Positions 4,755 to 31,912 of a DNA stretch of 33,507 nt are shown here, piece by piece; the first letter of the stretch is position 1; every line of letters begins with the position of its first letter. The stretch comes from Kofleriaceae bacterium (lineage in GTDB: Bacteria; Myxococcota_A; Polyangia; Haliangiales; Haliangiaceae). The translations under genes and the position numbers were made by a program. The notes below the pieces were generated by a model. That model was not told the DNA's origin. It saw only the letters and a list, made by a program, of their open reading frames with translations, and ran no database searches. Where the stretch lies: positions 1-33,507 of the forward strand of contig JBKJLC010000125.1 of the NCBI GenBank assembly GCA_046597055.1, given 5' to 3'.

Positions 4755-5288
4755 ATGCTCCCGTCGATGTCGGTGGTTCACGCTCCTTCCGGTTCAACCG
4801 TCCCTGCCCGCCGCGGCCGCTCGGTGACGACCCTGGCCCTGGCCGGGTTGATCGCGGGTCTGGCCGGGTGTGGCAGCGACGATGGCGGCACGGGAGGGGA
4901 ATCCAGTGACCTCGCGTTCTGCGTGGAGGAGACCAATCGCCTGCGCGCCACGGTGGGACGGCCGGCGGTGACGCGGTCGAGCGCGCTCGAGGCCTACGCC
5001 GCGACGGGGGCCCAGCAGGACACCGACAACATGGAGGCCCACGGCCACTTCGGCGACACCAACGGGGGCGGCATCGCGTTCGCCGAGAACACCTGCCCGG
5101 CCTGGCTGGGCTGGAACGTCCAGGGCACCGTGCGCGACACGGTGGCGGCCTGCCTCGAAGCGTTCTGGAGCGAGGGCCCCGGCGGCGGGCACTACGACAA
5201 CATGGTCGGCAACCACGGCGCGCTCGGCTGCGGGATCTACCTGACGCCGTCGGGCGGCATCACGATCATGCAAGACTTCGGGCGCTGA
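4755..5288 (+). CDS. CAP/SCP-domain lipoprotein (true start may be slightly downstream)
   Basis: Lipobox LAGC. CAP motifs CVEETNRLRA, HGHF, AEN and GGGHYDNM...LGCGI. Confidence 0.8.
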   Translation: MLPSMSVVHAPSGSTVPARRGRSVTTLALAGLIAGLAGCGSDDGGTGGESSDLAFCVEETNRLRATVGRPAVTRSSALEAYAATGAQQDTDNMEAHGHFGDTNGGGIAFAENTCPAWLGWNVQGTVRDTVAACLEAFWSEGPGGGHYDNMVGNHGALGCGIYLTPSGGITIMQDFGR

Positions 5289-5299
5289 GCGCAGGGCTG

Positions 5300-5333
5300 C
5301 GGTCCGGCGCGGCATCCAGGCCGCGCCCGACCG
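5300..5333. terminator. Hairpin between convergent genes; probable bidirectional terminator
   Basis: CGGTC-C-GGCGCGGC [ATCCAG] GCCGCGCC-C-GACCG, located between the stops at 5288 (+) and 5396 (-). Confidence 0.5.
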
Positions 5334-5395
5334 ATCGAAGGGAGGGTGGGATTCGAAAGAATCACAGCCGCTGACCGGGCCGCCGACGGGCTCGA

Positions 5396-6961
5396 TCAGC
5401 GCAGGTAGGCCGGGGCCTGGACCGCCGAGCGACACTGCCAGTTGAAGCTGCGCAGCTGACCGGCCTCGCCCTTGCTGGCCAGGCCGGCGAGGAGCTGGTC
5501 GGCGGCGGTGCGGAGCGCGCCGTCGGTGCGGCCGCTGTAATGCCACGCCATCGCGACCAGGTAGACCGACTCGCCCCAGTGCTCGTCGTACTCGTCGGGC
5601 TCGCTGGTGCCGCCGAGCGCCATCCAGTAGTACGGCTTGCCGGTCGAATCGCGGCCGTTGCGGGCGACCGCGCGACCGAGCTGGACGAGGTGGCTGCGGA
5701 CCGCGGTGGCGCGGGCGCCGCCGATCCGCAGGGCGTGGGCCTCGAGACCGTCGGCGAGGATCGCGCTCATCCACGGGCTGCACCCGGTGGTGCCGTAGGA
5801 CTCGCCGTGGGCCTCGGCGGTGTGGGTGAAGCAGCGCGCGGTGGCGTCGGAACCGCTGCGGCTGTGGTCCTGCATCGCGAGGTACGCGTCGACGGCCTGG
5901 TTGGCCCAGCCAGTGAATGTCGCGGCCTCGTCGTCCGAGACGATCGCCGCCCACTCGTACGCGAGCAGGCTGAAGCCGGCGTGGCGCTCGGTCCAGAAGT
6001 CGGCGGCGCCGGCATAGCCGGGGTCGGTCCACAGGCCGTGGGCGCGGGTCGCGACGTCCTCGGCGGCCTCGCGGAACCGGTCGTCACCGGTCAGGAGGTA
6101 GTGCAGCGCCATGCCCTGGCTGTAGTGGTACTTGAGGTCGTCGGCGGCGCCGGGCACGCCGATGCGGGTCGCGGTGCCGGTGCCGGTGATGCCGGCGCGG
6201 TAGATCGCGGCCTCGCGGTAGGCCGACGACAGCGGCGCCGGATCGGCGGTGATGGCGTAGCCGCGGTACATCGCGGTGGTGCGATCGAAGAGCCACACGT
6301 CGCGGCTGGCCTGACCGGCGAGGAAGGCCTCGGTGTTCCAGCGCGCGTAATCGCAGACGCCGCGCCACGCGTCGAGCGCGGTGCCCTGGGTCTGCGCCTG
6401 CGCGAGCAGCGGTCCCATCACGCCGCTCGCCGCCAGCCAGGCCGCGGGCAGCACCGCCCACACCTTGGGACCGGCGGTGCCGTCGGCGGCCACCAGCGTG
6501 TCGGCTACCGGGACCGCCGCGCGATCGCCGCCGCCGGCCTCACCGACCGCGATCGCCAGCGAGGTCTCGCCGGCGAGCGCGAGCTGGACCTGGATCTGGA
6601 CGCTGCGCACCGAGCCGTCGGGGTGCATCGCCAGCGCGCGCCGGTGGGCGGCGAGGTCGGTGCCGCCGTGGACGACGCGGACCTGGCTGGCGTCGTCGAG
6701 CATGCCGACCGGCAGCGGGATGGCGAAGTTGACCACCTGGGTGCCGCTCTGGCCGGAGGCCGGGACCAGGCGGACCGTGAGGTTGGGATCGATCGGCGTG
6801 CCCGGTGGATCGCCGGGCGGATCGCCAGGGCCGACATCGTCGTCGCCAGCGCCGGGATTGCTGACGTCGTCGCCACCGTTGGTGATGACGCCGGTACACG
6901 CGCCGCTCAGCGCCATCACCGACAGGAGCAAGGCCGCGCCGGGCGCGTGGTTGGTTCTCAT
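5396..6961 (-). CDS. Secreted lipoprotein, PcRGLX/YetA-like N-terminal beta domain plus helical toroid; putative carbohydrate-active enzyme (lyase-like), 521 aa
   Basis: Start MRTNHAPG with lipobox SGAC. VNFAIPLPVG...LAMHPDGSVRSVQI resembles the N-terminal RIFT barrel of PcRGLX-like proteins. Helical repeats YSQGMALHYLLTGDDRFREAA and W/Y/E-rich motifs (FWTER, SPWM). Confidence 0.6.
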   Translation of the reverse strand: MRTNHAPGAALLLSVMALSGACTGVITNGGDDVSNPGAGDDDVGPGDPPGDPPGTPIDPNLTVRLVPASGQSGTQVVNFAIPLPVGMLDDASQVRVVHGGTDLAAHRRALAMHPDGSVRSVQIQVQLALAGETSLAIAVGEAGGGDRAAVPVADTLVAADGTAGPKVWAVLPAAWLAASGVMGPLLAQAQTQGTALDAWRGVCDYARWNTEAFLAGQASRDVWLFDRTTAMYRGYAITADPAPLSSAYREAAIYRAGITGTGTATRIGVPGAADDLKYHYSQGMALHYLLTGDDRFREAAEDVATRAHGLWTDPGYAGAADFWTERHAGFSLLAYEWAAIVSDDEAATFTGWANQAVDAYLAMQDHSRSGSDATARCFTHTAEAHGESYGTTGCSPWMSAILADGLEAHALRIGGARATAVRSHLVQLGRAVARNGRDSTGKPYYWMALGGTSEPDEYDEHWGESVYLVAMAWHYSGRTDGALRTAADQLLAGLASKGEAGQLRSFNWQCRSAVQAPAYLR

Positions 6962-23716: not shown

Positions 23717-25639
23717 TCAGGGAAACGCGTCGACCGGGGGCGGCTCGGCGGAGGTGTACGCGCTCGCGAGCCAGGCGAGATCGCCGAACCGCTTGCGCAG
23801 GTCGTCCGCCAGCGCTGACGGCACGAGGCCATAACGACGCCCGTCTTGCTCGTCGAACCTCGGATTGACGTCGCCGCATGGGTTGTCCGTGAGGCGCAGG
23901 TAGCGCAGCCCTGGCAGGTTGTTCGCCGCGCACAGCGCCTCGAGTCCCGCGTCGGTCAGCTGGTTGAACCCCAGGTCCAGGTAGGCGAGCCGCTCGAGGT
24001 ACGGCGACGCGGCCAGGTGCCGTACGTCCTCGTCGGTGAACTGGGTATTGTACAGTCGAAGCGAGCGCAGCTGCTTGAGCTGCGGTGACGCGACCAGCGC
24101 CGCCGCCCCGGTGGTTCCCAGGCTGGTGATCTCCACGTCGATGATCGGCGCCAGGAGGTAGAAGCTCGCCGCCTGCGTGACGAACTGCGGCGCGGTCAGC
24201 GCGAGGCCTTCGATGAAGCCTCTCCGGAAATTGAGCGGGGCGTGTGCGTTGCTGCTGAGCGCGTCGACCCCGCCGCACCAGGCCTTGAGCTTGCCCTCCT
24301 TGGCGAGCAGGGAATAGCTCGTGACATCGTGCTCGAGGGCGTCCTTCGCACGGCCCAGCCGGCGCAGGCGGGCCGCGGCCAGCTGCGCCTCGATGAACGT
24401 CGCGCGGTCGGGGTCGAAGGGCACGACCAGCTTGCCGTAGCGCATCCGGGGTGCGTCCGAGCGAGGGTCCCGGAGCACCTCGGCAAGGGCGAGCTCGAGC
24501 GCTTCGTCGGCCGGGGTGGTGCGCGACGCTGGCGATGCCTCCGGCGTGGCTGGCCGCGCCCCGGCTTGGGTCCGCATCCACGCGGCGACGACGGCGCGCA
24601 AGGCGGGGCGAAAGACCGCGAAGTCTTCTCGACAGGAGGGGCACCGGTGCATGGTGTAGAGGTCGGCGCCTCGGGCCTCGACGCGCTCCGCGAACGGACT
24701 TCGGGTCTCGCACGCCGCGCACTCGTCGTCCGGGATCCCATGGGCCGGCTGCGCTCGCGGCGGGGGACGCGCCGGCAGCGCCTCGGCCGGCCGCGGTGGC
24801 GGCGGCGGCGGCGGTCCCTGAAGCGGACCCTCGATGGGGCGCGGCCTGCCGGCCGTCGCGCTCGTGCGCTCCGGGTTGGGCACCGCGGCCGCGTGCGGGC
24901 TCGCGCGCATCTGCTTGCACAACGCAGCCAGGCTGCCGGCGACCTGTGCCAGGCCAGGCGACGCCAGGGTGACCAGGGAGCTGAACTGAACGATGAGCCT
25001 TCCGTCCGGGTGCTCCAGCGCGGCGCACGGCGTGAAGGACCCTTCGGTGGGATTCATGTCGTACGGGGGCGAGGGGATGCACTCCCGTGCCAGGACCGTC
25101 ATCACCGGACCGACCATGTCTCGCACCGACCTTCGCCAGATGCGGATCTCCTTCGGAGCCTCGCGATAAACCTGCCCGCGCGAGTACAGCGCGTGGGCCA
25201 GCTCGCGAAGCTCGGCGTTGCCGTGGCCGTCGATGGTCAGGCTCCCGTCGTCGCTGTCGTAAGAGATCTTGACTCGGTTCACGTCGCGAAGGCGCCTGCG
25301 CCAGGCCGCCCGTTCGGGCTCCAGCGCGGCGATCCGCGGTGTCGACGCCAGGCCGCAACGACGGCAGCGCGGCTCGCGGTCGAAGAGGAACGTGCCGCAC
25401 CTCACGCACGCGGAGGACATGGCGAGCTCGACGCCGCTGGGGCCGCCGAACGGCGTGAGCTTCGCAAACGTGGCCGCGGTCTTGGTCGTGCCCGTCGGGG
25501 CGGTGCCATCGTGCCCGCACCATGGACACTTTCCGGGCTGGTGGGGCTCGCCCGGGAAGTCGCGGCAGAACAGGTGGACGGTGAACGAGCGACGACACGC
25601 CGGGCAGCCGAGCTCGGCGATGACCGGAGGGCCGGTCAT
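23717..25639 (-). CDS. Multidomain protein: three CxxC-CxxC zinc ribbons, Pro-rich linker, TIGR02996-like domain and leucine-rich repeats, about 640 aa
   Basis: CPAC/CPWC, CVRC/CRRC and CAAC/CPSC pairs. LAEVLRDPRSDAPRMRYG...RATFIEAQL...FRRGFIE is TIGR02996-like. LRRs LRSLRLYN, LAYLDLGFN and LRYLRLTDN. Confidence 0.75.
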   Translation of the reverse strand: MTGPPVIAELGCPACRRSFTVHLFCRDFPGEPHQPGKCPWCGHDGTAPTGTTKTAATFAKLTPFGGPSGVELAMSSACVRCGTFLFDREPRCRRCGLASTPRIAALEPERAAWRRRLRDVNRVKISYDSDDGSLTIDGHGNAELRELAHALYSRGQVYREAPKEIRIWRRSVRDMVGPVMTVLARECIPSPPYDMNPTEGSFTPCAALEHPDGRLIVQFSSLVTLASPGLAQVAGSLAALCKQMRASPHAAAVPNPERTSATAGRPRPIEGPLQGPPPPPPPRPAEALPARPPPRAQPAHGIPDDECAACETRSPFAERVEARGADLYTMHRCPSCREDFAVFRPALRAVVAAWMRTQAGARPATPEASPASRTTPADEALELALAEVLRDPRSDAPRMRYGKLVVPFDPDRATFIEAQLAAARLRRLGRAKDALEHDVTSYSLLAKEGKLKAWCGGVDALSSNAHAPLNFRRGFIEGLALTAPQFVTQAASFYLLAPIIDVEITSLGTTGAAALVASPQLKQLRSLRLYNTQFTDEDVRHLAASPYLERLAYLDLGFNQLTDAGLEALCAANNLPGLRYLRLTDNPCGDVNPRFDEQDGRRYGLVPSALADDLRKRFGDLAWLASAYTSAEPPPVDAFP

Positions 25640-25806
25640 GGCTGGCGCCGCTCGTCCACGTCGAGCAGCGCCAGCAGCTCGCCGACCGGCCGCGCCTGAT
25701 CGACCACGCCCGTCACACAATGACGGTACCACGCACCGCGACGGCCCCAGGGCCGCCCCGCGAACCGCGCCTTGTACGCGCCGCCGCCAGTGTAGGATGG
25801 CGCCCA

Positions 25807-28077
25807 GTGCGCACCTTGTCCTCTGTGTGGGTAGTGCTGGCAGCTTGCTGCGTCGTGGCGTGCACGGGCACGATCACGCAGGGCGGGTCAGGCGACGACG
25901 TCGGCGGCGACGACGATACCGACCCGGGGATCGGGCCGCTCACGGTGAGCCCGTCTCAGGTGACGCTCGGCCGCGAGGGTCAGCAAGCCTTCACCGCGGC
26001 CCGGTCCGGCGCGGCCGCGGTCACGGTGACCTGGTCCGTGCAAGAGGGCGCCGGCGGCACGGTCACGGCCGGCGGCCAGTACACGGCGCCTTCGACCGAC
26101 GGGACGTACACCGTGGTCGCGCTCGAGGTGGGCTCCGGCGCCCGGGCCGAAGCGACCGTGACGGTCGCCGAGCTGGTCGCGACCACGCACGGGATGGCGA
26201 TCCCGGCCGCCCACCCGCGGCTGTGGTTCAACCCCAGCCGGCTGAGCCGGGCCCGCGCCTGGTTCGCGGCCAACCCGTTCACCGCGCCCACCAGCGAGGA
26301 CAGCGGGGGTGGCTACGGCGACGTGGCGCTGCACGGCCTGCTGTCGAACAACGCCAGCGGCTCGTGCACGCGCGCGATCACCTGGGGCCTGTCGCGACTC
26401 GGCGATGTCGACGACAGCGGCGGCACCGCCTGCGACTCGTGCCGATGGACCGGCGAGCAGCTCATCCTCATCTTCGACTGGTGCTACGCCTACTTCACGC
26501 CGGCGCAGCGCGCCACCTACGTGGCCGGCGTGTCGACCGGCCTCCAGGCGTGGAGCCGAAAGAGCTGGGGTGGGCCCGGGATGTTCCAGAACAACTACTA
26601 CTGGGGCTACCTGCGCAACGAGCTCGAGTGGTCGATCACGGCCTACGACGAGAACGTGCCGTGGGCCGAGGCCATGCTGACCTGGGTCTTCACCAACCGG
26701 CTCCAGAATGGCTTCAACCCGTCGACCCTCGCCGCGGGCACCAGCCGCGGCGGCATCGCGAGCGAAGGCTCCGAGTACGGACCGGTGGTGGGCGCCTACC
26801 CGCTCGTCCCGTTCGTGACCGCGAACCTGCTGGGCCGCAACCTCTACGAGGAGACCGACTTCTGGCGCGAGGCCGTCTACGCGGTCATCTACTCGACGAC
26901 GCCGGCGCCGACCACGGTCCCCGACGTGACCGGGACCGGCTACACCATCTTCCCGTTCAGCGACGACGAGGGCTGGAACTCGCGGTTCCAGGCCCAGACT
27001 CACTACTTCCCCGACTTCATGACCACGATGGCGTCGTACTGGCCGACCCAGAACGTCGGCCGACATGCGCGCGAGTGGGCGAACATGGTCGGCGTCCGCC
27101 CGTGGCGGCACGTGCAGTCCGTCGATGTGCCCAGCACGCCGCTCGGGTTCAGCGGGCTCCCGCTCGACTTCTATGCCTCGGGTCCGCGTTACCTCTACGG
27201 CCGCAACGTGTGGGGCCCGAGCGCGACGACCTTCATGCTGCAGCTCGGGGATGCGGCGGAGAACACGATCGGCCATCAACACGGCGACTACGGCACGTTC
27301 CAGATCTGGCGGAACGGTCGCTTCATCTCGCACGAGTCGGCCGCCTACGCCGGCTCGGACGACAGCGCGGTGACCGGCTACGCCGGCACCGGCACCGTCG
27401 ATGGCGCGCTCGGCATCGCGCACAACACCGTGCTCGTCAACGGCGCGAACCCGGGTCCCCAGTACTCGGGCCCCGAGGCGATCGTGGAGCGGCTCGAGTC
27501 GACCCCGGGCTACACGTTCGCGGTCGTCGACCTGGTCCCGCCCGCCACCCGCATGCAGGAGTGGCGGCGCGAGTTCGTGTTCGTGCGGTCGCTCGAGACG
27601 CTGGTCGTCCTGGACCGGCTGCAGACGGCGGACGCCGGCGCGACGAAGACCTTCATCAACCACTGCGAGACCGTCCCGGTCGTCGCGGCGAACAACAGCG
27701 CCACCTGCACGGTCGCCACCCAGGCGCTCACGATGACCACGCTGCTGCCGGCCCAGCGGACCTACCGCGTGGTCGACGAGGGCGCGCGCGTGTACAGCCA
27801 GCACCGGATCGAGGTCGACACCCGGCCCGGCACCGCGCAGAGCTACATCCTCACCGTGCTCGAGGCGAAGAACGCCGGCGACGCGAGCCTCACGCCGACG
27901 GTCGTCGACAACGGCGCCTCGTACACCGTCACCCTCGACGCCGCGACCACCATCACCTTCCAGAAGGGCATGGCGTCGGTCGGCGGGTCGATCCGGATCG
28001 GCGGCGCCGACACCCCGTTCCGGACCGGCGTCCAGACCATGTCGGTGACCGGCGACGGCCCGCGCTGGGCGCCGTAG
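25807..28077 (+). CDS. Secreted lipoprotein with Ig-like domain and heparinase II/III-like (polysaccharide lyase-type) architecture
   Basis: Lipobox VVAC. Ig-like segment (VSPSQVTL...VTWSV...GQYTAP), HPRLWF, NNY, EGSEYG, GHQHGDYGTFQIWR and AHNTVLVNG, typical of HepII/III alpha-toroid plus beta-sandwich proteins. Confidence 0.7.
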   Translation: MRTLSSVWVVLAACCVVACTGTITQGGSGDDVGGDDDTDPGIGPLTVSPSQVTLGREGQQAFTAARSGAAAVTVTWSVQEGAGGTVTAGGQYTAPSTDGTYTVVALEVGSGARAEATVTVAELVATTHGMAIPAAHPRLWFNPSRLSRARAWFAANPFTAPTSEDSGGGYGDVALHGLLSNNASGSCTRAITWGLSRLGDVDDSGGTACDSCRWTGEQLILIFDWCYAYFTPAQRATYVAGVSTGLQAWSRKSWGGPGMFQNNYYWGYLRNELEWSITAYDENVPWAEAMLTWVFTNRLQNGFNPSTLAAGTSRGGIASEGSEYGPVVGAYPLVPFVTANLLGRNLYEETDFWREAVYAVIYSTTPAPTTVPDVTGTGYTIFPFSDDEGWNSRFQAQTHYFPDFMTTMASYWPTQNVGRHAREWANMVGVRPWRHVQSVDVPSTPLGFSGLPLDFYASGPRYLYGRNVWGPSATTFMLQLGDAAENTIGHQHGDYGTFQIWRNGRFISHESAAYAGSDDSAVTGYAGTGTVDGALGIAHNTVLVNGANPGPQYSGPEAIVERLESTPGYTFAVVDLVPPATRMQEWRREFVFVRSLETLVVLDRLQTADAGATKTFINHCETVPVVAANNSATCTVATQALTMTTLLPAQRTYRVVDEGARVYSQHRIEVDTRPGTAQSYILTVLEAKNAGDASLTPTVVDNGASYTVTLDAATTITFQKGMASVGGSIRIGGADTPFRTGVQTMSVTGDGPRWAP

Positions 28078-28096: not shown

Positions 28097-29215
28097 ATGA
28101 TGGACACCCTGTACCGGCGCCCCCTGCCCGCCGACGCGGTCGCGTTCTCGTCGGCGCCGGGGCGCGCGCTGTTCGCCGAGGCGCTCGCCACCGGCGGGCT
28201 CGACGGCTACTTCCCGCTGGCCGAGCAGTTCCACACCCAGGCCGATCCGGCGTTCTGCGGGCTCGGCTCGCTGGTGGTCGCGCTCAACGCGCTGGCGATC
28301 GATCCGGGCCGGCTGTGGAAGGGCCCGTGGCGGTGGTTCGCCGAGGATCTGCTCGACTGCTGCGTCCCGCTCGACGAGATCCGCCGGCGCGGCCTCGATC
28401 TCGACGAGCTCGCGTGCCTGGCCCGGTGCAACGCCGCCGAGGTCGAGCTCCATCGCGCCGAGCACGACGGCGTCGAGGCCTGGCGCGCCGCCCTGGCGAT
28501 CGCGGCCGCGGGGTCCGCGGTCGTCATCGCCTCGTACGATCGCAGCGCGCTCGGCCAGACCGGCGCCGGCCACTTCTCGCCGGTCGGCGGCTACCACGCC
28601 GGCCACGACCTCGCGCTCGTCCTCGACGTGGCGCGCTTCAAGTATCCACCGCACTGGATCGGGGCCGAACCGCTGTGGCGCGCGATGCAGCCGGTCGATC
28701 CGGCCACCGGCCGCTCGCGGGGCTGGCTGGTGATCCGCGCGCGTGCGCACGGCGGCGCCGTCGGCTTCTCGCTCCGCTGCGACGGCGCCGGCTGGCAGGC
28801 GCTCGCCGACCGGCTGGCGAGGGTGGTCACCGAGCTGGCCGACATCGTCGACGTCGCCGCGCTCGCCCGCGCGGTCGTGCCGCTCGCCGGTCACCTGACG
28901 ATCCGCGCCGCGGGCACCGAAGCCCACGCCGACGCACTCGCGAGCGCCCGGACCGGCGTGGCCCGCCTCGCCCTCCATGCTTACATCGTCGACGCGGTTG
29001 GCCCCACCCACGCCGAGGGCGTGGCGCTGCTCATGCTCGCGATCGCCGATCGCCTGCCGCCGCCGTGGCGGGCCGCGCTCGCGCCGCTGGTCGCGCTGAC
29101 CGAGGTCGACGACGCGCTCGCCGGCGAGCTCACCAACCTGCGCGCCCAGATGGCCGCGGTGTGGACGCTGGGCGCGACCGGTCCCGGCTGCGCCGGTGCC
29201 GCGGGCTGCCGCTGA
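28097..29215 (+). CDS. pcs: Phytochelatin synthase (glutathione gamma-glutamylcysteinyltransferase), eukaryote-like with C-terminal extension
   Basis: TQADPAFCGLGSL (catalytic Cys), IDPGRLWKGPWRWF, LDCC, GQTGAGHFSPVGGY (His) and LDVARFKYPPHW (Asp). Confidence 0.93.
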   Translation: MMDTLYRRPLPADAVAFSSAPGRALFAEALATGGLDGYFPLAEQFHTQADPAFCGLGSLVVALNALAIDPGRLWKGPWRWFAEDLLDCCVPLDEIRRRGLDLDELACLARCNAAEVELHRAEHDGVEAWRAALAIAAAGSAVVIASYDRSALGQTGAGHFSPVGGYHAGHDLALVLDVARFKYPPHWIGAEPLWRAMQPVDPATGRSRGWLVIRARAHGGAVGFSLRCDGAGWQALADRLARVVTELADIVDVAALARAVVPLAGHLTIRAAGTEAHADALASARTGVARLALHAYIVDAVGPTHAEGVALLMLAIADRLPPPWRAALAPLVALTEVDDALAGELTNLRAQMAAVWTLGATGPGCAGAAGCR

Positions 29216-29241: not shown

Positions 29242-30534
29242 TCACGAACCGGCGGCGGTCCGACGGGTCTGCCGCAAGAAGTAGACGCAGCTCACCGTGA
29301 AGCACGTGGCGCACACGAGGCTGGCGACGTACGAGAAGTGACGGAAGAACACCAGCTTCGAGGTCTCGGCCTGCCCGAACACCTTGTAGAGCACCAGCGC
29401 GACCGAGCCGCCGTAGGCCACCGCGTCACTGATGTAGATCAGGAACACCGCGGTCGCGACCACGCCGAGCGCCGCGATGGTGCGGTCGAACAGCACCGAC
29501 CCGTACGGGACGTAACCCAGGTAGAGGCCGAGCCCGACCAGGATCATCCACGTGCGCGGCCCGATCAGGCCCAGATCGAAGCTCAGCGTGCCCACGCCGA
29601 TCATCACGCTGCCGACGATCATGATGACGTACGTCAGCAGGAGGCCGCGCCGGTTGTCCTTCACCAGGTAGAGCAGCGCGAGCACGACCATCACCGACAG
29701 CGCGATCGGGATCTCGGTCAGCGTGAGGTTGCTCGCGCTCGGCGCCGACCCGAGGTCGGTCCAGATCTCGGCCGCGTAGTTGTCGCGAAAGTCGCGGTAC
29801 GCGGTCAAGAACAGGTAGACGAGCACCAGCAGGACCAGGCCCGGCAGGTACCGCCAGGTGAACGCGCGCCGCTCGGGCGCCGACATCGGCTCGCGCTCGG
29901 TGCGGGCGGCCACGTCGGCCGGGCTCGGCGGCGGGATCAGCGACAGCCCCCACACCGCCAGGAAGAACATGGGCAGGAACAGGAGGCCGGTGGTCGCGGG
30001 CATCCACGCCTCGCTCACGCCCTCGCCGAGCAGGGTCACGCCGACCGACTTCACCGCGCCGCTCGCGACCACGTAGGCGCAGCTGAGCCCGGCGCCGAGG
30101 ATCTCCGAGGTGCGCCGGCCCTCGAGGAAGCTGAACACCACGCCCCACACGGTGCCGAGCGGCAGCCCGTTGAGGAACAGCGCCACCACCTTGCCCTCGG
30201 GCGGCACCACCGCGAACAGCACCAGCGCCGCCTCGGCCCACACGATCAAGAGCACCAGCGCCCACGCGCGCCGGCCCGGCTGCATCTCGGAGTTGAACTT
30301 GACGCCGAGCATCTTCGACAGCGCGTAGCCGGCGAGCTGGCTGATGATGAGCGCGCTCTTGAGATCGAGATCGCCGAGCGTCTCGCCGGCGTAGGTCGCC
30401 GCCGCGAACGGCTTGCGGAACGCGTACATGCAGAAGTAGGTCGTGAACGCCACCACGACCGCGTAGGTGGCGAACCAGCCCGGCGAGGCGCGGCCGAGCC
30501 AGCGGGTGATGCCCGCCCGGGTCGCGGCGGTCAT
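29242..30534 (-). CDS. DUF5690-family multi-pass membrane protein (MFS-like)
   Basis: AFTTYFCMYAFRKPF, SQLAGYALSK, FLNGLPLG.VWG.VFSFLEGRR and LTAYRDFRDN. ATGA overlap with the upstream MFS gene. Confidence 0.8.
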   Translation of the reverse strand: MTAATRAGITRWLGRASPGWFATYAVVVAFTTYFCMYAFRKPFAAATYAGETLGDLDLKSALIISQLAGYALSKMLGVKFNSEMQPGRRAWALVLLIVWAEAALVLFAVVPPEGKVVALFLNGLPLGTVWGVVFSFLEGRRTSEILGAGLSCAYVVASGAVKSVGVTLLGEGVSEAWMPATTGLLFLPMFFLAVWGLSLIPPPSPADVAARTEREPMSAPERRAFTWRYLPGLVLLVLVYLFLTAYRDFRDNYAAEIWTDLGSAPSASNLTLTEIPIALSVMVVLALLYLVKDNRRGLLLTYVIMIVGSVMIGVGTLSFDLGLIGPRTWMILVGLGLYLGYVPYGSVLFDRTIAALGVVATAVFLIYISDAVAYGGSVALVLYKVFGQAETSKLVFFRHFSYVASLVCATCFTVSCVYFLRQTRRTAAGS

Positions 30535-31793
30535 CGGGTCGCGGCCTCCGCGGGCGCCGCGCGCTCGGCGATCGCGTTCCACAGCGGCAGCGCGACCACG
30601 GCCGCACCGAGCGCGCACGCCGACCAGAAGTAGAGCGCGGTGTGCCAGTCGTGATGGTCGACGATGTAGCCGGTGAGCTGATCGCCGGCGGCGGCGCCGA
30701 GATAGCCGACGAAGTTCACGAAGCCGACCGCGGCCGCCGCGCTGCCCCGCCGCGCGAGATCGACCGGCGCGGTGCCGACCAGCAGCACCTGCGGCCCGAA
30801 GATCATCGCGCCGATCAGGGCGAGCGTGACGATCGACAGCGGCAGGTTGGTCTGCACGATCGCGTCGTAGCCGATCGTCAAGAGCGCGAGCATCACCAGC
30901 ATCGCGCAGATCGCGGGCACCCGCCGACCGCCGAGGAAGCGGTCGGTCACCCACCCCGCCAGCAGGGTCCCGGTGATCCCGCCGAGCGGCAGCACCGAGT
31001 ACTTCAGCGCCGACTTGCCGATCCCGCCGGGCTGCACCTCCATCAGGTGCGCGACGCCCCAGTCGAGGAAGCCGAACCGGCACGCGTTGAGGAGCCCGAG
31101 CGACAGCGCCAGCAGCCACAGCTGCGGCGTCGCCAGGGTCAGGCCCAGGGTCGCCAGCCACGAACGCGTCGGCGCCCCGGCCACCCGCGCCACCGGCACC
31201 ACCGGCGCGTCCGGCTGCTCGCGCAACGTCGCCAGCATGAAGAACGCGGCGGCGGTCAGCAGCACCGCCGGCACGTACAGCGCGCCGCGCCAGCCCAGCC
31301 ACTCGGCCGACCAGCCCGACACGACGAACGTCAGGGCCCCCGCGAGCTGGTAGCCCGTGCCGATCACGCTGATCGCGCGGCCGCGCTGCACCGGCGGGAA
31401 CCAGGCGGCGGCGACCCGCATCGTCGGCGGCCAGCCCAGCGCCTGGAAGTAGCCGTTGCACGCCCAGATGAAGAGCAAGAAGTAGAAGCCGGTCACCAGC
31501 CCGAACAGCACGTTGAGCGCGGCCGACACCAGCATGCCGACCGCGAGCAGCCGGCGCGCGCCGAACCGCTCGGCCAGCTGGCCGTTGACCAGCTGGCCCA
31601 CGCCGTAGCTGAGCTTGAGCGCGCCGAGGATCCAGCCGACCTCGGTGGCCGTGAGGTCGAGCTCGGCCCGCATCCCGGGCACCGCCGCCGACAGGTTGCT
31701 CCGGCAGAAGTAGAAAGCGCCGTAGGTGAGCCACAGGACCCACATCACCTGCGACTGCGCGCGATCGAACCGAACCTGCCTGTGCCGGGTCAT
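30531..31793 (-). CDS. MFS transporter, organophosphate:Pi antiporter (GlpT/UhpC-like) family
   Basis: LTYGAFYFCRSNLS (conserved Arg in TM1), NGYFQALGWPP, WFPPVQRG, GWVTDRFLGGRR and FGPQVL; about 12 hydrophobic segments. Confidence 0.85.
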   Translation of the reverse strand: MTRHRQVRFDRAQSQVMWVLWLTYGAFYFCRSNLSAAVPGMRAELDLTATEVGWILGALKLSYGVGQLVNGQLAERFGARRLLAVGMLVSAALNVLFGLVTGFYFLLFIWACNGYFQALGWPPTMRVAAAWFPPVQRGRAISVIGTGYQLAGALTFVVSGWSAEWLGWRGALYVPAVLLTAAAFFMLATLREQPDAPVVPVARVAGAPTRSWLATLGLTLATPQLWLLALSLGLLNACRFGFLDWGVAHLMEVQPGGIGKSALKYSVLPLGGITGTLLAGWVTDRFLGGRRVPAICAMLVMLALLTIGYDAIVQTNLPLSIVTLALIGAMIFGPQVLLVGTAPVDLARRGSAAAAVGFVNFVGYLGAAAGDQLTGYIVDHHDWHTALYFWSACALGAAVVALPLWNAIAERAAPAEAATR

Positions 31794-31912
31794 CGCGTCG
31801 GGAGTTGTCCTACGGCACGCCGCCGGCGACAACCGAGTGGCGACGCATTACGGGTGACGGCGGAGCGGCGGCCCGGTGACGCCGGTCGCGGTCAGCGCGC
31901 CTCGGCGCCGGC

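Follow-up and report, generated by a model that had tools for sequence, protein, structure and literature searches.

Does a myxobacterium carry a complete eukaryote-type phytochelatin synthase (PCS), and if so, what is its C-terminal part, where did the gene come from and what would it do? The question is raised by the open reading frame at positions 28097–29215 of the forward strand of a 33,507-nucleotide contig of a Kofleriaceae bacterium (the window, meaning this whole stretch of DNA), in which an earlier sequence-only reading had seen a plant-type, two-domain enzyme. In the literature searched, whose coverage leaves out most subscription journals, we found no report of a myxobacterial PCS; Olsson et al. 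reportedly published in 2017 a PCS phylogeny that includes bacteria and may contain myxobacterial sequences. Cyanobacterial group-2 enzymes with four cysteines and a longer C-terminus have been described in silico (Ferrari et al. 2024, PMC11314372), in a study that sampled cyanobacteria and algae only and that, in the text describing these enzymes, draws no homology to the plant C-domain. The novelty claimed for a C-extended bacterial form thus narrows to the myxobacterial case, and the protein is a group-2 PCS of the most compact two-domain kind, with published cyanobacterial precedent.

The gene and its catalytic domain

The reading frame encodes 372 amino acids counted from the first ATG (28097) or 371 from the second (28100), and residues are numbered here from the second. 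It holds the single PF05023 match in the host genome, spanning residues 5–209 (28112–28726, forward strand, as are all features below unless noted) at 270.6 bits against a cut-off of 24.9 (E 8.8e-81). This papain-like Phytochelatin domain, matched by Foldseek to Nostoc Alr0975 at E 1e-15, contains the Cys-His-Asp triad that had been announced, as Cys53/His158/Asp176, so that both marks of the PF05023 superfamily, a domain above cut-off and the triad, are present. The whole-protein structure model has a pLDDT of 82.7. The claim that there is no signal peptide agrees with a domain that begins at residue 5 and with relatives that begin at the same place. Likewise, the surmise of a myxobacterium-like host is borne out by nearest named relatives within Myxococcota and by a genome of 72% GC and 8.4 Mb (94% complete), and that of native codon usage by a GC3 of 0.946 and a CAI that rank in the 60th and 87th percentiles, respectively, among 3805 long ORFs called crudely. 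A contaminant contig or eukaryotic DNA is ruled out by the adjoining genes, which are 76–84% identical to those of congeners at the nucleotide level.

All motifs quoted from the sequence occur in the expected order, with LYRRPLP at residue 4, DPGRLWKGPWRWF at 68, CC at 87–88 and CxxxC at 106–110. B-loop 1 (28235–28258; definitions from PMC11314372 and PMC3855540) comprises Thr46, Gln47, Asp49-Pro50, Phe52 and the catalytic Cys53, and the segment 28571–28645 comprises His158, Asp176 and the Arg179-Phe180-Lys181-Tyr182 loop. Group-2 ('E/D') enzymes are defined by Glu/Asp-Pro four residues before the catalytic Cys and by a Thr in [ST]-x2-[DE] context (PMC11314372), a signature present here as Thr46-Gln-Ala-Asp49-Pro50; the group-2 CC/CxxxC motifs between the catalytic Cys and His are present as Cys87, 88, 106 and 110 (28358–28429). 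The triad and these four cysteines are spaced exactly as in AtPCS1 (triad at 56, 162 and 180, cysteines at 90, 91, 109 and 113; positions from PMC11314372). In our alignment the four cysteines are invariant in 71 other group-2 rows and missing in 4/4 rows of half-size N-type enzymes, which also lack the DPGRLWKGPWRWF loop (28301–28339). None of the marks of group 1 ('N'), namely Asn at the signature position and the lack of CC/CxxxC and of a C-domain, is found in this protein.

The residues that line the second substrate site of AtPCS1 (list from PMC3855540) are kept in eight of eight cases, two of them as tolerated substitutions, Glu52 to Asp and Tyr55 to Phe; in AtPCS1 itself, Glu52Asp shows comparable activity and Tyr55Phe is the most active Tyr55 mutant (PMC3855540). 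The Thr46/Arg179 pair is kept as well and is missing in the four N-type rows aligned. Together with the group-2 signature and the four cysteines, these residues uphold the eukaryote-type assignment of the N-domain. The second-site Gln, Arg, Lys and Tyr do not discriminate, because they are conserved also in the weakly synthesizing Nostoc enzyme (PMC3855540). Among solved structures, the N-domain retrieved Nostoc Alr0975 chains only (~30% identical). This half-size group-1 protein, NsPCS (PDB 2BTW, 6TH5), has the same catalytic fold and triad but lacks the WKGPWRW loop, the four cysteines and the C-domain, and is mainly a hydrolase. In the host phylum, another group of short group-2 enzymes (L083, L084, L087–L090) has Trp at the plant Tyr55 position in 5/5 rows aligned.

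The C-terminal extension and its relatives

The extension of ~160 residues begins near residue 212, and profile comparisons indicate that it is homologous to the plant C-domain, a relationship seen only via its family. Searched alone, the extension of this protein gave no match to PF09328 (Phytochelatin_C), the check that the earlier note had proposed, and it reached 4.3 bits with a profile built from 40 plant C-termini, equal to the best reversed control. The family gives another picture. In alignment A2, consisting of this extension and 39 non-redundant extensions from 67 long loci (40 rows), PF09328 is the top family by count, matched by 10/40 rows at E ≤1 (best 1.3e-7; the query row is not among them). 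When 119 long homologues are scored over their C-terminal parts, the A2 profile gives named land-plant entries 17–59 bits, against ≤5.7 bits for reversed and ≤7.3 bits for tenfold shuffled sequences, and a close-clade profile made of the first 16 rows, each at least 38% identical to the query, gives 8.4–20.8 bits on 40/40 plant C-termini, against ≤2.7 bits on the same termini reversed. Comparison of A2 with the plant alignment by hhalign yields 97.5% at E 4.9e-12 over 150 columns. Because the family profiles are positive in both directions, the single-protein Pfam negative is not a refutation: the proposed homology stands at the level of the family and is undetectable from the one sequence, which ranks among the most diverged of its family in this region. 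Against 1.84 billion representatives, the A2 profile finds 185 proteins at E ≤0.001; among the 150 matches listed, 49 longer proteins were scanned, of which 47 carry PF05023 or PF09328 (11 with PF09328 over cut-off), one is a kinesin false positive and one has no family.

The plant match falls in two pieces, plant residues about 217–325 and 425–490. At the site of the Cys-rich insert, 4/5 plant rows have 115–121 residues with 7–11 Cys, cyanobacteria have 33–42 residues, and this protein has 16 residues and no Cys, with three Cys in the whole extension; the Cys-rich middle is missing, as had been noted. The three proposed pairings with Arabidopsis PCS1 share their alignment columns with the plant rows (Lotus, Ginkgo, Citrus, Urochloa and Ranunculus). 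Positions 28733–29176 would thus encode a compact, all-helical C-domain that is homologous to both ends of Phytochelatin_C, is without the insert and has Cys227 in common with plants. Modelled alone, this domain is all-helical with a pLDDT of 88.6, and three of its residues, His276, Glu343 and Gln350, recur in 90% or more of the 40 A2 rows. A fold search against 48,161 solved representative chains returned nothing above Z 3.3, which does not establish a new fold, and the one ESM Atlas match, a eukaryotic PCS cluster at 0.79, lies below the tool threshold of 0.9 and serves as a lead only. The domain is followed by a tail (29177–29212) with two Cys and low model confidence (pLDDT <50 at residues 362–371). 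Its CAGAAGCR ending, quoted in the sequence-only reading, is indeed present at 364, but the tail is unconserved in close relatives, and a terminal Cys pair acting as a family metal site is ruled out on that ground; scattered tail cysteines are frequent in distant members of the alignment.

Outside the land plants, the A2 profile scores Physarum at 42.9 bits (one stretch), Diphylleia at 28.4, Polysphondylium at 21.0, cyanobacteria at 29–32 and green algae at 14–16, and two proteins from cyanobacteria score above the PF09328 cut-off. Homology to an animal C-domain, suggested by alignment alone, was not upheld, the one scallop protein scoring 7.0 bits, within noise. Since the C-core is found in myxobacteria, cyanobacteria and slime moulds, it predates land plants, whose novelty is the Cys-rich insert.

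Compared with land-plant PCS (AtPCS1 type, PF05023 plus PF09328), the protein shares the catalytic and second-site residues, the four Cys and both C-domain ends, with about 46–53% identity across the first 252 residues, but it is about 120 residues shorter, falls below the PF09328 cut-off and has no Cys-rich middle with twin-Cys motifs. The cyanobacterial group-2 ('E') enzymes (Aulosira BAZ78561, Scytonema BAZ19144, Microcoleus) have the E/D-Pro signature, CC, CxxxC and an extension that matches the myxobacterial profile, and are about 56% identical in the N-domain; they differ in phylum, in forming a separate clade, in their longer linker at the insert site, in having Glu instead of Asp in the signature and in the lack of Cys227 in 7/7 rows. 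Amoebozoan PCS (Physarum, dictyostelids) has the compact C-domain and short linker, but also long N-terminal extensions, Cys-containing tails and a separate clade. The label 'plant-type' therefore holds for the eukaryote-type features, and 'eukaryote/group-2 type' is the better term, as slime moulds share the compact C-domain.

It has been written that cyanobacterial enzymes are without a C-domain and that, among land plants, liverworts may have been the first to gain one (PMC7586750). A C-core in myxobacteria, cyanobacteria and slime moulds is at odds with acquisition of the domain in land plants. A bacterial version of 360–390 residues, present in cultured Nannocystis, gives a simplified system in which to study a plant domain of debated structure and origin: it makes a C-domain structure feasible and the long-debated role of the domain testable, with scaffold and metal sensor separable.

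Distribution, transfer and origin

Of 8000 scored candidates, 2532 passed as relatives; the best 120, the protein itself aside, are 62–70% identical and mostly about 362 aa long. In the genome loci examined, the best 80 of 126 confirmed, most records are titled Myxococcota or deltaproteobacteria (four Nannocystis strains included) and about ten Pseudomonadota. The extension is present in 67/80, two are cut by contig ends, and 11 end soon after the N-domain in ORFs that look complete, though some may be frameshifts. The two-domain form is thus no isolated case, and among myxobacteria it is common. Within the host phylum, PF05023 occurs in 28 of 401 sampled genomes, as four two-domain group-2 enzymes, six short group-2 enzymes, one fragment and, for the remainder, half-size N-type enzymes; two genomes (G181 and G284) contain both group-2 and N-type enzymes.

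Eight Pseudomonadota-titled records (L033, L035, L036, L037, L047, L049, L053 and L063, at about 5001–5750) encode single-domain group-2 enzymes with a short Cys-containing tail that nest among two-domain myxobacterial relatives; they are natural C-domain deletions. Several of these genes adjoin genes for a small membrane protein and a DUF3703 protein, fused in L033 and L035. In protein P0126, a two-domain PCS of bacterial type carries an AHSA1/START-like domain fused to its C-terminus, and P0351 (348 aa, on a 1.6-kb contig), which joins a LacI helix-turn-helix, a homoserine succinyltransferase piece and the PCS C-domain end, is probably a chimeric assembly.

Among congeneric genomes, 10/16 have the gene, nine of them at full length and 52–56% identical to this copy, a discrepancy with the far more similar adjoining genes given above. 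In a quick tree, all ten congener copies form one clade (SH-aLRT 100) with this copy outside, grouped with Polyangiaceae-, Haliangiales- and Gammaproteobacteria-titled sequences. Because this copy differs from those of its congeners, it was probably acquired from another bacterium. The disagreement between the PCS gene and its neighbours would be explained by replacement with a copy from a different GC-rich bacterium or by hidden paralogy. The conclusion drawn earlier from codon usage, that the gene is no recent import, is too strong, since codon usage does not exclude a GC-rich bacterial donor and the gene tree points to one.

The deeper history was examined with a 75-row tree built on 371 columns of N-domain and C-core after removal of one row that looked like a duplicate; it has no fungi, nematodes, red algae or diatoms, its bootstrap is not fully converged, and four N-type rows, NsPCS itself not among them, serve as outgroup. 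Group-2 rows, eukaryotic enzymes included, split from N-type rows at 100/100 (SH-aLRT 99 in another tree), and the protein falls on the group-2/eukaryotic side instead of among half-size enzymes, the placement that had been proposed as a check. Within myxobacterial lineages whose branching is unresolved, the 29 eukaryotes and seven cyanobacteria form a group with a single Minicystis-titled protein (100/95). That the latter is a mis-binned cyanobacterial gene is ruled out: it is the best match for 31/73 mid-length relatives, which share its GC-rich composition. Since it represents a sizeable GC-rich family, composition does not explain its join with the eukaryotes. Constraining the 35 myxobacterial-side rows to monophyly is not rejected (p-AU 0.346), nor is eukaryote monophyly (p-AU 0.532), whereas grouping cyanobacteria with plants and green algae is modestly rejected (p-AU 0.033) under a constraint that also forces plants together with chlorophytes. 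Plant PCS has been called plastid-derived and formed by fusion (PMC9917255); on these sequences a plastid origin is disfavoured and weakly rejected.

As to the suggestion of a bacterial sister clade or an ancient transfer, eukaryotes nest within myxobacteria in the free tree, but a sister relationship is not rejected and transfer may have run in either direction. An ancient gain of the two-domain gene by myxobacteria from a eukaryote, instead of donation or shared ancestry, would fit its patchy distribution in the host phylum and the unrejected myxobacterial monophyly, and the root is unsafe given the great length of the outgroup branch (2.5 changes per column on each side). Yet no myxobacterial row lies within any eukaryotic clade, and the free tree nests eukaryotes and cyanobacteria in myxobacteria with a GC-rich Minicystis-like sister against compositional pull, so that we rate a eukaryotic donor as unlikely. 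As a tentative scenario, itself more doubtful than not, the two-domain PCS arose in Myxococcota; eukaryotes would have inherited it early from a myxobacterium-related donor and not from the plastid, cyanobacteria would have acquired it separately, and the Cys-rich segment would be a later land-plant addition to a helical domain that was by then ancient. In that case myxobacteria would have a working minimal PCS and would make phytochelatins.

Proposed function and genomic setting

We consider the protein to be probably a cytoplasmic, eukaryote-type (group 2) glutathione gamma-glutamylcysteinyl transferase that builds phytochelatins upon metal-glutathione complexes. In the step established for the family, Cys53, aided by His158/Asp176 and Gln47, would cleave glycine off glutathione and be acylated by gamma-Glu-Cys. 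A pocket of Asp49, Phe52, Arg148, Gln153, Phe180, Lys181 and Tyr182 would then bind a thiol-blocked acceptor, either Cd(GS)2 or the growing chain, to which the dipeptide would pass in a ping-pong transpeptidation, an activity predicted from the residues. Plant work has assigned metal range and a brake on over-activation to the Cys-rich insert. Because the C-domain here is without that insert, it may act as a stabilizing scaffold and not as a metal sensor, and Cd-activated synthesis with a metal range narrower than that of plant enzymes would be expected. The peptides would buffer cytoplasmic metal alongside the host efflux pumps; if the enzyme is active, phytochelatins join the metal defences of abundant soil bacteria.

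This reading is favoured by the triad and Cys spacing, the complete second site, the Thr46/Arg179 pair, the group-2 placement, the C-domain homology and the glutathione genes. The check for the latter that had been proposed turned up gshB above cut-off and a glutamate-cysteine ligase resembling that of plants, which scores 196 bits with PF04107 and 392 bits with TIGR01436, short of the 463 bits that the latter requires. No E. coli-type GshA was found in the 94% complete genome; gshB is present in 5/5 other myxobacterial carriers tested. Also counted in its favour are two cyanobacterial plasmid copies, each lying between two cation ATPases, which in the Aulosira plasmid (L113) are typed heavy-metal P1B with a MerR regulator nearby. 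The plant N-domain alone suffices for catalysis (PMC7586750), and a cyanobacterium makes PC2–PC4 under Cd, an activity not tied there to a group-2 gene (PMC7411734); the literature searched yielded no assayed bacterial group-2 enzyme. Counted against phytochelatin synthesis are the non-discriminating second-site residues, the lack of a flanking metal gene, exporters at only 4/74 loci, a host already equipped with three P1B ATPases and five CusA/CzcA pumps (all above cut-off; Acr3 was not found in the genome as assembled), and the patchy occurrence of the two-domain form (4/401 phylum genomes). Bacteria, moreover, have no vacuole in which to store phytochelatin-metal complexes.

The same wealth of pumps, the unconserved metal-gene context and the single conserved Cys of the C-domain would also suit an enzyme whose physiological job is turnover of glutathione or its conjugates by glycine removal, for instance to recover prey thiols, and which makes little phytochelatin in vivo; glycine removal needs no metal and is what Nostoc NsPCS mainly does (PMC9917255, PMC3855540). 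We regard this main alternative as improbable, though worth keeping in mind, as the protein has group-2 features that N-type hydrolases are without, and a separate N-type enzyme in many genomes of the phylum, with both kinds together in two of them, suggests different jobs. Somewhat less credit goes to an active enzyme whose C-domain is a dispensable remnant of no functional effect. The short loci, three of which nest among two-domain relatives, the 6/10 complete group-2 genes of the phylum sample that are short and the divergence of this extension all speak for such decay, but the extension is retained in most loci, with lengths near 362 aa in the best relatives, three of its residues are conserved almost throughout A2 and it folds confidently alone in the model. 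For phytochelatin synthesis, our preferred reading, gene context adds little. The nearest neighbours (223 ORFs at 74/80 loci, six near-duplicates dropped, E ≤1e-14) include metal exporters at four loci, a rate that has no formal control: CusA/CzcA at L020 and L048, Acr3 at L042 and a truncated P1B ATPase at L040. Acr3 is found also at L080, one of the near-duplicates left out, and the RND pumps beside L004 and L009 are not assignable to a substrate class. The metal-exporter neighbourhood is thus a weak signal across the family, and no conserved metal operon was found among the nearest genes of the 74 loci; an apparent neighbour cluster at 39 loci came from antisense frames of the PCS gene itself and was artefactual.

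On the conjugative plasmids of Aulosira (L113:4312–13413) and Scytonema (L114:4313–14120), the two-domain PCS gene and two YdcZ-type exporter genes lie between the two P-type ATPase genes, a region that by its gene content appears to be a mobile metal-resistance island. In the window, no metal gene flanks the PCS gene, which starts 19 bases beyond the end of a heparinase-like gene and faces the convergent DUF5690 and GlpT-like MFS transporter genes. The upstream gene (25720–28077, forward strand) encodes a protein of 785 aa, probably secreted, that shows Ig-like similarity and, weakly, similarity to heparinase II/III; the gene has orthologues in several congeners, and in G406 and G417 it is not on the same contig as the PCS gene. 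Downstream (29242–31832, reverse strand), the DUF5690 gene is coupled to that of the GlpT/UhpC-like transporter, a pair matched at 79–82% in 2/16 congeners. Farther upstream (23717–25732, reverse strand), a 671-aa protein combines N-terminal Cys-rich, zinc-ribbon-like motifs with a C-terminal leucine-rich repeat region.
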